A stretch of 64,000 bases of DNA, from the sequence record PZ386969.1; one strand, given 5' to 3'. Below are positions 21,617-23,444 of this stretch, piece after piece. Source of the stretch: a phage. Below the pieces are notes generated by a model, which saw only the letters and a list, made by a program, of their open reading frames with translations, was not told the DNA's origin and made no database searches. Made by a program: the position numbers and the translations under genes. Position 1 is the first letter of the stretch; each line of letters begins with the position of its first letter.

Positions 21617-23444
21617 CACAAAGAGGAGAGGACTTTTCAAATTAGCTTGGCTGTAGTAAAGTATTAAACACGAGGCGAATAGCGCGGTGGTAGTAGGGCT
21701 GGAACCCGAAACCAGGAAAGCCCAGTCTCAGGGCACCGTGACGAATAGAGGCGTAATATCAACCTCGCTGGTGTCGGTGGACGCACTGACCGTCGGAGAA
21801 CGAAACTCCCTGTTGTAGCGTGATTAGCTCAGAGAAGAGAGCGCCCCGTTGGCGAGTCGACACCAACACATAGGGGAGGTCGGGTCTGCCAAAATCCATC
21901 ACGCCGACAACATTATGAGTCTTCCATAGAGGGTTCATAATGTTGCGTCAAAGGGCAACACAAAGGTTCCTGTTGGTTGAATTAACTTGATTCATAGTTC
22001 CTACTGATCTTCCCGGATTCGAAGGATCACCAACAGGCGAGGCCGGATGCGTAAGTTCCGGTAAATCGATGGTGACGCCCTCGCAAACAAAAATAAAAGG
22101 TTTTATCAATAACGGGTTACAAAGTATAGTTAACCCACTGAACGGCAAGCTGTTTGAGTCCTGGCCACTCATAGTGTTGTGAGACCAAGACAGGTACGTT
22201 TAGGACTCAAACAGGTTTTCGTTTTCGTTGTGCGTGACTTTGCGGGTTTTTAGAAACTGACCAAGCAAATAACTGCTAATGATTCCGAAGTTCTGATGGC
22301 GGCGTAACAGCCTATAAGTCAGTGAGGTCTTCCGATTCCTCATCACCAAATTCGGCGCACTAAAATAGACGGGAGGGTGTGATTAATAAGCTCCCGTCGA
22401 CAATGCCGTTATATCTGACTGTCCAAAGGGGATAAGCTCCTGAGTAAGCAGAGGTGGGTTGCCTAAGTCAGATGGGATGTAAGGTCAGCGCTGGCCAAGC
22501 ATTTGGGTTCGACTCCTAAAAACGGCTCCACATCTTTGAGGATATTCTCACGAGTATCTTGAAAGATGTGAGCGAAGTCTTGCCATCAGCCCTGATCCCT
22601 GGCAGGTGAAGGGCACACAAATCGAAGTGCCTTGACAATTTATCTTAAACCCAAAGGTTGATCTACAAATTTGGGCGGCCAATCCGGTGGACGATAACAG
22701 CATATTGGGCCATACTGTTGAGTCAGGGCACTTCGATTTGTGAACTTTAGAGAGCATTGGGTGAAATAGACCATGCCTTGCAGATTGCGATGCCTACACA
22801 TTCCGGACACTGGTGGGCACCAAGAAGAACTCAGTAGCAGACGAGCCATCAGGGTTAGCTACCCGGCGCGGCGAGGACTGGGAGGCCGAACTAAGGGGAA
22901 ACCCGAGACAGGCGTAGTATTCTCAAGTTCACAAAATGAAGAGCATTTAAAGAGTTCGATTCTCTTTCAGGCCATTCGTGGTGTGATGTGAGTCATGAAT
23001 GTTCTTCATCTTTGGGTGATTCTATGTTGTCGGGCTATCAACCCATGCTTGCTGGAGCAACCAGCGGCTCTGAATCAACCAGCCAGCCTCGTTTGGTCCG
23101 AGCGTTAGAGGACAAGTTGCTTCTACATGGAAGCTGCGAGTTGCGACATTGGTTGCAACTTTGATGGCTCTGGATTTTATAAACCATGTCTATGGGTGAC
23201 GCGGGATCTTTAGTACCAGAGCTATCAAAGTTGTGTCCAACCCGATCTTACAAGCCCGTATCCCGGTCTGGTTAAGACTTGTAAGTGGAAAGCCCTGGAA
23301 AAATAAACGCCTGTGGCGAGGCTATGGTGCAAGCCAAAGACCCACAGAAGCGCGTTGCCGTGAGGCGCACAAACAGGCATGCATGAACTGATCATGCACA
23401 AACGGGATAAAGGGTTGACAGTCCTTGGTTGGTCACAATAATTT
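21617..23444. ncRNA. ORF-free hairpin-rich region, candidate structured non-coding RNA(s)
   Basis: 1.8 kb without ORF over 75 aa in a dense genome, GC similar to coding; perfect 13-bp and 16-bp long-range inverted repeats and several local hairpins. Confidence 0.35.

Follow-up and report, generated by a model that had tools for sequence, protein, structure and literature searches.

Three hairpins in the gene-less part of a phage transfer RNA (tRNA) cluster have the form of a tRNA T-arm but lie outside the intact tRNA genes, which raises the question of what RNAs they belong to. They are located in a stretch of 64,000 nucleotides (nt) of phage DNA (record PZ386969.1), hereafter the window, which comes from a Vi1-like phage of the Ackermannviridae. 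An original prediction, made by hand-folding, had described these hairpins as degenerate and offered three explanations: tRNA pseudogenes, tRNA-like 3′ domains of other RNAs, or tRNAs with non-canonical features. We can say with high confidence that the first and third hairpins belong to real, conserved tRNA-shaped RNAs. Our preferred reading, which we consider likely, is that they are the T-arms of separate, non-decoding RNAs that are excised by the tRNA machinery, and that the second hairpin is a fragment. What the prediction missed is an RNA directly upstream of the first tRNA-shaped RNA, which resembles transfer-messenger RNA (tmRNA) and encodes a peptide tag.

All three T-arm hairpins are present as described. 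Hairpin 1 (22502-22520) reads UUUGGG/UUCGACU/CCUAAA and is followed by CCA at 22528-22530. Hairpin 3 (24549-24566) reads UCAGG/UUCGACU/CCUGA, with CCA at 24576-24578 inside a tail of the form U-CCC-A. Hairpin 2 (22949-22967) reads AAAGAG/UUCGAUU/CUCUUU and has no CCA. The window contains four exact copies of the T-loop motif GGTTCGANTCC, all on the + strand and between 22506 and 24563, compared with a chance expectation that we estimate at ~0.1 (10 specified bases, both strands). The four carriers are tRNA-Tyr, tRNA-Ser, hairpin 1, and hairpin 3. Likewise, the T-arm pattern GGTTCGACTCC, with its 7-nt UUCGAnU loop, is matched exactly at 22506 and 24553, while hairpin 2 differs from GGTTCGANTCC at two positions.

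The original prediction could pair no 5′ acceptor strand with any of the hairpins, but hairpins 1 and 3 each have one, GCCGUUA at 22405-22411 and GGGCGUG at 24425-24431, respectively. The distance explains why hand-folding overlooked these strands, which stand 115-140 nt 5′ of the T-arms. When they are included, the two hairpins become parts of complete, self-contained RNAs that close their own acceptor stems and contain no anticodon:

22405..22530, + strand: module 1, a 126-nt tRNA-shaped RNA (covariation, conservation)
24425..24578, + strand: module 3, a 154-nt tRNA-shaped RNA (covariation)

In module 1 the acceptor stem is formed by GCCGUUA and AAACGGC (22521-22526), which gives 6 base pairs (bp; 22405-10/22521-26) and an A.A apposition, followed by U73 at 22527 and CCA at 22528-30. 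A long arm of 9 bp plus an extension (22412-20/22466-74) and a second arm (22475-80/22499-22504) with an inner stem (22483-87/22492-96) and a GCGC loop take the place of the D and anticodon arms, so that the consensus fold is a four-way junction. Across the 41 pairs, 98.4% of the alignment cells are paired, compared with 34-46% when the partners are slid. Four pairs show compensatory changes, for example the acceptor pair U5-A68, which becomes C5-G68, and the stem UCUGACU/AGUCAGA, which becomes CCUGAU/AUCAGG. Among 199 phage records, 176 have the sequence at 95-99% identity, and its conservation starts exactly at G22405; the flanks upstream of this position vary among phages.

Module 3 begins 7 nt past tRNA-Ser, with an intrinsic terminator (24635-24664) downstream. 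Its acceptor stem pairs GGGCGUG (24425-31) with CGCGCUC (24567-73) over 7 bp, two of them G.U. A long arm occupies the D-arm position (24432-38/24486-92), and an 8-bp second arm occupies the anticodon position (24501-08/24539-47) and encloses the inner hairpin GAAAUGC-AAAUA-GCUUUC. The T-arm (24550-54/24562-66) has a 5-bp stem and a UUCGACU loop, and the tail follows as U-CCC-A. The RNAalifold consensus is again a four-way junction. Matches are found in 208 records, with divergence to about 72-79% identity, and the alignment was built from 11 distinct homologues from Agtrevirus, Kuttervirus, and Taipeivirus, which are down to about 71% identical to the window copy. The 40 pairs are kept in 98.9% of the cells, compared with 42-45% for slid partners, and 11 of them are compensated, including acceptor pair C4-G69 (to U4-A69), 6 of the 8 second-arm pairs, and two T-stem pairs. 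The acceptor stems of both modules thus show compensatory changes in relatives, and both are followed by a discriminator and CCA (U73 and CCA in module 1, U and CCCA in module 3). A likeness between one loop of module 3 (AAGGUGUGCAUGCCGAC in Kuttervirus) and nt 37-52 of Escherichia coli tmRNA was considered and dropped, as the loop is different in the window copy, and the window holds a perfect 14-mer match to ssrA at another place that is due to chance.

Neither module is an additional tRNA gene in the eyes of the standard programs: default ARAGORN calls neither, and the Rfam tRNA model (RF00005) matches neither even at E≤10. A 7-nt anticodon loop is absent from both consensus folds, which have the 4-nt loop GCGC (module 1) and the 5-nt loop AAAUA (module 3) instead. 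It could be argued that the modules are functional decoding tRNAs whose large insertions or introns are excised before use. When ARAGORN was run in relaxed intron mode, it did return a tRNA-Glu(UUC) with a 73-nt intron for module 3 and a tRNA-Leu(CAG) in the 3′ part of module 1 (22454-22530). The anticodon proposed for module 3 is not constant, however, but becomes Glu-UUC, Glu-CUC, Gly-GCC, or Phe-GAA depending on the relative, and the 'CAG' of module 1 sits in a compensating stem (GGUCAG/CUGGCC, which becomes GGUUAG/CUGACC) under an acceptor stem with two mismatches. We therefore rejected both the intron-containing models and the Leu model. Inserts of 23-74 nt are also far below the size of the group I introns found in bacterial tRNAs. 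Together with the lack of any Rfam tRNA match, these points make decoding tRNAs with introns extremely unlikely.

A different objection is that the hairpins are remnants of decaying tRNA pseudogenes without a function of their own. The tRNA cluster is mosaic among relatives, which differ by tRNA gains and losses, and the annotators of phages Det7 and CBA120 had noted a 'degenerate tRNA' in it. Hairpin 2 is just such a relic:

22935..22985, + strand: decayed long-stem module, GAAGAGCAUUU-[hairpin 2]-CAGGCCAUUCGUGGUG (compared by eye with intact modules)

Its flanks imperfectly match the ends of a module with a long stem, CACAACAGGUAAGAGCAUU - variable payload - AGUGCUCUUUCCGUUGUGG, that is abundant in lambdoid prophages and also found in other phages, and this match identifies hairpin 2 as a relic, the T-arm-like payload of a decayed module. 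It is shared by the window and two close relatives only (L001 and L084); in other relatives the homology stops at 22936 or 22953. For modules 1 and 3 the situation is the reverse. Module 1 is better conserved than its flanks, at 95-99% identity across genera; module 3 has diverged, yet retains 98.9% of its pairs by way of 11 compensated positions; and the long arms of both are conserved structures rather than debris. Conservation and compensation argue against decay of these two RNAs, and we regard the pseudogene explanation as very unlikely for them. The term degenerate is therefore apt for hairpin 2, which is not conserved in most relatives, while hairpins 1 and 3 are conserved and fall between a tRNA-like 3′ domain and a non-canonical tRNA.

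The long-stem modules appear to be an undescribed repeat family. We found 63 distinct examples, 5 of which carry a T-arm of the TTCGA type in the payload; those listed have total lengths of 73-214 nt, implying payloads of ~31-170 nt. Arrays of them (L016 1650-1760, L025, L026, L029, and many lambdoid loci) are found in the interval between tR′, the late terminator, and the lysis genes, and are often followed by tRNA-like units of the form UGUGGUG...T-arm...CACCACA.

The RNA directly upstream of module 1 (22214-22404, + strand), hereafter the core, coincides with no annotated feature. It came to light through distant BLAST matches of 22221-22389 to unrelated phages, namely the N4-like phage Pollock, the lambdoid phage HK633, and siphoviruses, where it is unannotated as well. 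The elements of the core and the hairpin preceding it are as follows:

22150..22214, + strand: hairpin H0, CUGUUUGAGUCCU...AGGACUCAAACAG, counterpart of the lambdoid long-stem module ending GUUUUCG
22214..22250, + strand: core 5′ arm, GGUUUUCGUUUUCGUUGUGCGUGACUUUGCGGGUUUU, complementary to E. coli tmRNA nt ~69-106
22275..22307, + strand: tag frame, GCU AAU GAU UCC GAA GUU CUG AUG GCG GCG UAA, ANDSEVLMAA-stop
22293..22322, + strand: stop-codon helix, CUGA...UCAG, analogous to tmRNA helix 5
22323..22355, + strand: pseudoknot A, stem UGAGG/CCUCA, with loop CCGA pairing to a downstream UCGG
22356..22398, + strand: pseudoknot B, CGCACU/GGUGUG interleaved with GACGGGAG/CUCCCGUC, with an invariant AUUAAUAA loop (RNAalifold)

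In 37 diverse sequences, the structure downstream of the tag is paired in 95.5% of the cells, compared with 34-45% when slid. The stop-codon helix is 100% paired, with a G-C to A-U exchange in 17 of the 37. Pseudoknot A shows double changes in three plus two pairs, with CCGA/UCGG alternating with CCAG/CUGG and CCAA/UUGG. In pseudoknot B a C-G pair becomes U-A in Felix-O1-like phages, and covariation of the second stem could be read off the alignments. Upstream of the tag, a hairpin at the position of tmRNA PK1 (CUUUGCGG with CCACAAAG) is compensated in L082 and Serratia phage 3M, as judged by eye.

The tag frame is preceded by AAAUAACU, with A-U-A at positions -6 to -4, and by eye it has neither an AUG start nor a Shine-Dalgarno sequence. 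Twelve different peptides were present in the first, motif-selected set, and more in later loci; nearly all variants follow the consensus A-N-[DE]-x-x-x-L-[AM]-[AV]-A-stop. Among 26 distinct ORFs (open reading frames), 60% of the single-base codon differences are synonymous in the tag frame, compared with 3% and 18% in the other two frames, which also contain stop codons. The Ala, Asn, Asp, and Leu codons of the tag frame vary synonymously, and its stop alternates between UAA, UGA, and UAG across the family. This pattern of coding selection suggests that the tag frame is decoded by a route like trans-translation, a conclusion we hold with a little more than even confidence.

Sub-threshold similarity to tmRNA is found at the same place. 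The Rfam model tmRNA_permuted scores 19.8-30.5 bits (gathering score 47) in the window and five further loci, at the same spot, and weaker matches are obtained with alpha_tmRNA (~20, gathering score 50) and beta_tmRNA (~16, gathering score 84). ARAGORN relaxed to -ps80 reports a tmRNA with an ANDSEVLMAA tag; in default mode it missed the core family in every locus tested. We rejected the relaxed ARAGORN model (22149-22530, 5′ acceptor GCUGUUU) because that strand belongs to H0, whose distal stem covaries among phages (AGUCCU/AGGACU versus GGGCA/UGCUC), and the alternative strand GCCGUUA at 22405 is compensated in Shigella phage MK-13. The core has no tRNA-like domain, that is, no acceptor stem and T-arm, enclosing the tag region, and so lacks the feature that defines the tmRNA family. 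In several lineages a promoter stands directly ahead of the core, which leaves no 5′ acceptor strand there. We suggest that the core works as the message half of a tmRNA does, and that such a half is its probable ancestor.

The core is widespread. BLAST located it in 715 of 50,697 GenBank phage records, among them Vi1-, Felix O1-, N4-, and P1-like phages and lambdoid prophages; the records listed have no annotation at this place, or a hypothetical protein. A motif scan of IMG/VR gave at least 120 contigs. The HK633 subtype occurs in 157 of 5,426 complete E. coli genomes, and nearly all of the matches listed have no annotated feature, with one partial match under a hypothetical protein. A scan of GTDB gave 12 matches, compared with ~8 expected by chance by our own estimate, so that several are probably fortuitous; the real ones are Enterobacterales prophages. 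In HK633 the core is located between the late promoter (PR′/qut) and the holin gene, and in related lambdoid prophage loci it stands just behind an intrinsic terminator. In phage P7 (L157, ~678-860; P1-like, species Punavirus P1), the core encodes the tag ANDDLMMAAA; the C1-controlled operator Op(ban) precedes it, and tRNA-Asn and tRNA-Thr follow. Felix-O1-like phages have the order promoter TTGACA-17-TAAGAT, core, hairpin, and tRNA-Arg(UCU), and in phage ASO78B and lambdoid prophages the core is followed by modules and then by a tRNA-like structure or tRNAs.

The core has no tRNA-like domain of its own, but the coding selection on its tag frame implies that it is brought to the ribosome by some means. 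One candidate is the adjacent RNA: the core and both modules may form a self-sufficient, rearranged tmRNA, in which module 1 (in cis, uncleaved) or module 3 (in trans) is charged and brings the core's tag template to ribosomes that have stalled. Module 1 directly adjoins the core, and a variable stretch of the core resembles the 5′ acceptor strand of module 3 (GUGCGUG versus GGGCGUG in the window; GUGUGCG versus GGGUGCG in L012). In one locus, L107 (495-915, on a 108-kb IMG/VR contig), this stretch reads GAGUGAU and pairs 7/7 with the acceptor 3′ strand GUCACUC of a module-3-like RNA 240 nt downstream. However, such closure of the core in cis by a downstream acceptor strand is convincing in only 1 of 118 loci, and the complementarity between the core and module 1 or module 3 is no better than that of shuffled sequences. 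Both modules close their own acceptor stems and lack G3.U70. The core also occurs with no tRNA-like partner next to it, as in Pollock, where the RNA ends in a terminator, and in Felix-O1-like phages, where an ordinary tRNA-Arg follows, and it is retained in Klebsiella phage KpS110 and Enterobacter phage fGh-Ecl02, in which module 1 is lost or truncated. A split tmRNA of this kind is in our view rather unlikely. L107 is the only locus with a core and a module-3-like RNA within ~400 nt and 7/7 pairing; its module-3-like RNA also has a 5′ strand of its own, GGGUGAU, and may represent a one-piece or switchable form.

We return to our preferred reading, that modules 1 and 3 are separate non-decoding RNAs. 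They share transcription units with real tRNAs and have the acceptor/T-arm shape, so that excision by the tRNA maturation machinery is to be expected. RNase P would cut at G22405 and G24425, followed by 3′ trimming or CCA repair, and the excised modules would persist as stable tRNA mimics unable to decode; we consider this processing and stability likely. Cleavage at G22405 would at the same time create the 3′ end of the upstream core, which we regard as somewhat likely. A tRNA or tRNA-shaped RNA is usually located 3′ of the core across phage families, which fits a role of RNase P in forming this end. Our best guess is that the tRNA-shaped RNAs serve both to punctuate the transcript and to mimic tRNA toward host factors that bind it, and that the core acts on trans-translation. 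What the analysis shows is limited to the folds, their conservation, the coding signal of the tag frame, and the complementarity of the core arm to host tmRNA; processing, stability, any charging, and every function are inferred.

A narrower alternative would reduce the modules to processing punctuation: they would recruit RNase P to make the ends of their neighbors, and the excised pieces would be degraded. This would agree with the tRNA or tRNA-like structure directly behind the core in the window and in Felix-O1-like phages (other modules intervene in ASO78B and lambdoid prophages) and with the loss of module 1 in some phages. The acceptor/T-arm stack alone suffices for RNase P, but the long arms are also conserved in module 1 and covary in module 3 (6 of 8 second-arm pairs), which indicates further constraints. 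Moreover, module 3 is the last RNA of the operon ahead of the terminator, with no RNA behind it to be released. We consider pure punctuation unlikely.

Several observations weigh against this reading. For module 1, all four compensatory changes stem from one divergent relative, MK-13, which does not keep the inner part of the long arm, and the T-stem in the consensus fold consists of GGG/CCC only. Module 1 is also dispensable in some lineages: KpS110 retains only its last ~12 nt, and the closest relative, fGh-Ecl02, has a segment of lambdoid type in place of its 5′ two-thirds. The tail of module 3, UCCCA, is not a clean NCCA. Neither acceptor stem contains G3.U70 (C3-G70 in module 1; G3-C70, with G2.U71, in module 3), and alanine charging as in tmRNA is therefore not expected. 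Finally, RNase P cleavage, the CCA status of the modules, and their mimicry of tRNA are predictions.

The surroundings of module 1 differ among relatives in further ways. In fGh-Ecl02 (L003, 2440-2660), a segment of lambdoid/siphovirus type stands in place of pseudoknot B and the 5′ part of module 1, and includes a long-stem module as well as a portion of a tRNA-like unit that L118 also has; such a replacement indicates that RNA modules recombine between unrelated phage families. Kuttervirus loci (L004 ~7615-7712 and others) have an extra tRNA-like insert between the core and module 1, with the T-arm GAAGG UUCGAGU CCUUC and the tail ...CCAAUCCCA, which the window lacks. Directly behind the CCA of module 1 is a conserved hairpin, ACAUCUUUGAGGAUAUUCUCACGAGUAUCUUGAAAGAUGU (22531-22570). 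Relatives retain its AUCUUUGAGG...CUCAAAGAU stem and differ in the inserts it contains, some of which have a T-arm.

The core opens with ~30 nt that are complementary to nt ~69-106 of E. coli K-12 tmRNA. This span runs from the 3′ strand of PK1 through the linker and the resume codon G90 into tag codons 1-5 (GCA AAC GAC GAA AAC U). The segments predicted to pair are GUUUUCGUC in the arm and GACGAAAAC in tmRNA. For the window arm, RNAduplex gives -34.4 kcal/mol (z = -4.5); across the family, 30 of 37 members reach -28 to -36 kcal/mol, with z-scores of -3.6 to -8.8 relative to shuffled arms, while the arms and the tag regions of the phage RNAs themselves give only -8 to -19 kcal/mol. The lambdoid-type arm (AGUUUUCGUC-AC-GUU-A-GCGAC-UUUGCGG) pairs with tmRNA at -35.4 kcal/mol, a value reached by none of 77,907 background windows of real sequence (best -34.4), which corresponds roughly to p ~ 3e-4 for a 363-nt target chosen in advance. 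GUUUUC is invariant in 37/37 family members, while the phage's own codons 3-5 vary freely, and the variants of GCGAC (GUGAC, GCGGC, GCGAU, GUGGC) can all still pair with the host GUCGC through wobbles, as judged by eye. Base pairing of modules 1 and 3 with host tmRNA is no better than that of shuffles. BLAST of the arm against E. coli genomes, for which the gapped duplex is below reach, returned only prophage and P1-like plasmid copies; 560 matches to the 37-nt arm lie on plasmids of ~90-120 kb, probably P1-like phage-plasmids.

Part of this complementarity may have other causes. In lambdoid and Ackermannviridae loci, GUUUUCG(UC) also forms the 3′ side of H0's basal stem, and the Felix-O1-type arm is weakly complementary (z about -2 to -3). 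Since CUUUGCGG pairs with its own CCACAAAG, with compensation in L082 and Serratia phage 3M, part of the match to the host may reflect homology to PK1. We therefore regard an antisense relation between the arm and host tmRNA, suggested by sequence complementarity, as a strong lead and not as a result.

This lead would suggest a route by which the tag could be decoded, a "tag swap". The arm would anneal across the 3′ strand of PK1, the region of the resume codon, and tag codons 1-5, and so mask the tag template of the host. The same annealing would tether the resume signal and tag frame of the phage to the charged tRNA-like domain of the host tmRNA, and ribosomes rescued during infection would add ANDSEVLMAA, or one of its variants, in place of ANDENYALAA. 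The tRNA-shaped modules would release and accompany the core RNA. That decoding makes use of the host tRNA-like domain in this way is a tentative proposal that we think possible but doubtful. If true, it would be a new viral way to reprogram a host quality-control RNA, and one common to P1-like, lambdoid, Felix-O1-, N4-, and Vi1-like phages. Some phages have long been observed to depend on tmRNA, including lambda-immP22 hybrids and Mu, and the complementarity to host tmRNA suggests that phages may manipulate trans-translation directly.

The stretch 21400-24800 is matched by 292 phage records, with fGh-Ecl02 at the top (96.7%). No convincing ORF is found between 21620 and 24780, and the equivalent region in GenBank records is empty or filled with small hypothetical ORFs on either strand; the CBA120 genome paper covers this same genomic place. 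The four intact tRNAs reported previously were recovered by both ARAGORN and Rfam, all on the + strand and spanning 23445-24418 with spacers. They and the signals found around them are as follows:

22103..22130, + strand: sigma-70-like promoter TTATCA-16-TATAGT, upstream of H0 and the core (consensus scan)
23415..23442, + strand: promoter-like site TTGACA-16-AATAAT, 11/12 matches, preceding tRNA-Met (consensus scan)
23445-23521, + strand: tRNA-Met (ARAGORN, Rfam)
23693-23768, + strand: tRNA-Asn (ARAGORN, Rfam)
24026-24109, + strand: tRNA-Tyr (ARAGORN, Rfam)
24330-24418, + strand: tRNA-Ser (ARAGORN, Rfam)
24635..24664, + strand: intrinsic terminator AGCCGGAUAUCCUAUCCGGCU plus U-run, closing the operon of tRNAs and tRNA-like RNAs

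The promoter at 22103 is present in all aligned Ackermannviridae loci, where relatives read TTGTCA. Similar promoter-like sequences (...UCAAUAA...UAUAGU) stand before tRNA-Asn (23640-23692) and H0 (22095-22135), which points to multiple short transcription units instead of a single long precursor.

Further structured segments were observed in the region. The ~450 nt at 21640-22100 are rich in hairpins and kept in all aligned Ackermannviridae loci; they include a tRNA-like piece (21819-21905) with GCGUGAU/AUCACGC paired 7/7 and a D-arm-like AGCUCAGA, and at their 3′ end Kuttervirus and Taipeivirus have additional inserts containing T-arms. Behind tRNA-Met is a 109-nt insert (23529-23638) with a tRNA-like start, GGGGCGAUAGUUUAAUGGAUAGC, and no acceptor partner; it is found in the window and Det7 and is missing from vB_CECAV_050, which has a tRNA-Trp further downstream. 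Two long, near-perfect hairpins are formed at 22612-22745 (CACAAAUCGAAGUGCC...GGCACUUCGAUUUGUG) and at 23135-23250 (GCAACUUUGAUGGCUCUGG...CCAGAGCUAUCAAAGUUGU), the latter with weak Rfam matches to miRNA families. The Rfam models YrlA, Y_RNA, GOLLD, and ROOL have no match in the region. The gene-less region of KpS110 (L020, 2747-2960) matches STnc100 (RF02076) at 48.7 bits, compared with a gathering score of 47, and MK-13 more weakly at 33.4 bits. In the Felix-O1-like tRNA cluster of Citrobacter phage Mordin (L143), the stretches 1153-1270 and ~1435-1517 are tRNA-shaped and not annotated as tRNAs, one example being GGUCAAG...GUAGG UUCGACU CCUAC CUUGACU G CCA.

Taken as a whole, the gene-less stretch is an array of structured RNA genes rather than junk, often overlaid by doubtful small ORFs in GenBank. 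The core family within it has been overlooked by default annotation tools and, it seems, by the literature we searched, in which we found no description of the tag peptides, the loop motif, or a phage family of tmRNA-like or anti-tmRNA RNAs; a prior mention in the P1 genome paper is possible. Published surveys place phage tmRNAs only in mycobacteriophages, Bacillus phage G, and DS6A, and do not list enterobacterial phages (PMC4131195), and the 79 phage sequences in the 2025 tmRNA database come from ARAGORN or from BLAST to known tmRNAs (PMC11915505). The family reaches P1-like phages (found in P7), lambdoid prophages of Shiga-toxin-producing E. coli, and Felix-O1-like and therapy-candidate phages.

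Compared with known systems, the core most resembles one-piece tmRNA (ssrA, RF00023) in its message part. Its tag frame has no start codon and opens at an Ala codon; its 10-residue AND...AA tag resembles ANDENYALAA of E. coli; its A-U-A at -6 to -4 corresponds to A84-U85-A86 of E. coli; and it has a stop codon in a helix, H-type pseudoknots downstream, and a hairpin at the PK1 position upstream of the tag. It differs in that the tag region is not enclosed by an acceptor stem or a T-arm, only two pseudoknots follow downstream, and it scores below the Rfam gathering score and the default ARAGORN threshold. In addition, it has a 5′ arm antisense to the host tmRNA, and it is encoded by phages of many families. 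With the two-piece, permuted tmRNAs of alpha- and beta-proteobacteria and cyanobacteria (RF01849-51, RF04321) the locus shares a tag template and a tRNA-like part on separate segments, and the weak Rfam matches to the core are to these models. In two-piece tmRNA, however, the acceptor piece lies upstream, the coding piece begins with the 5′ acceptor strand, and the two are joined by the acceptor stem and helix P2, whereas the modules in the window are self-closed, lie downstream, and have no significant pairing to the core. The 'TLD-only' tmRNA of mycobacteriophage DS6A and the tmRNAs of Bxz1-like phages and Bacillus phage G are likewise phage-encoded pieces of trans-translation. The window presents the opposite of DS6A, an RNA with only the tag template beside separate tRNA-shaped RNAs, and its modules differ from DS6A and the canonical phage tmRNAs in lacking G3.U70 and in forming four-way junctions.

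For the modules, other comparisons apply. In mitochondrial tRNA punctuation and in the mascRNA of MALAT1, an RNase P substrate placed 3′ sets the 3′ end of the upstream RNA. These systems are organellar or eukaryotic, and the modules in the window differ from them by extra conserved arms and an encoded CCA. The bacterial Y-RNA-like YrlA is a long stem bearing a tRNA-like module with a T-arm, and in this it is like the lambdoid long-stem modules, the type that left hairpin 2 as a relic; in loci with long-stem modules there is no Rfam match to YrlA or Y_RNA at E≤1, and we saw no rsr gene context. RNA C and RNA D of phage T4 have tRNA-like termini and mature together with tRNAs, and are not known to adjoin a tag-encoding RNA. 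Modules 1 and 3 also sit among tRNA genes between promoter-like sites and a terminator, where they are probably co-transcribed with them. The T4 tRNA cluster gives rise to RNA C and RNA D (species 1 and 2), which are small and stable, have no known role (PMC3014915), and are the nearest precedent for tRNA-cluster RNAs of this kind. The modules described here add to the puzzle they pose, and suggest that the tRNA clusters of enterobacterial phages hold a class of tRNA-shaped, non-decoding RNAs.

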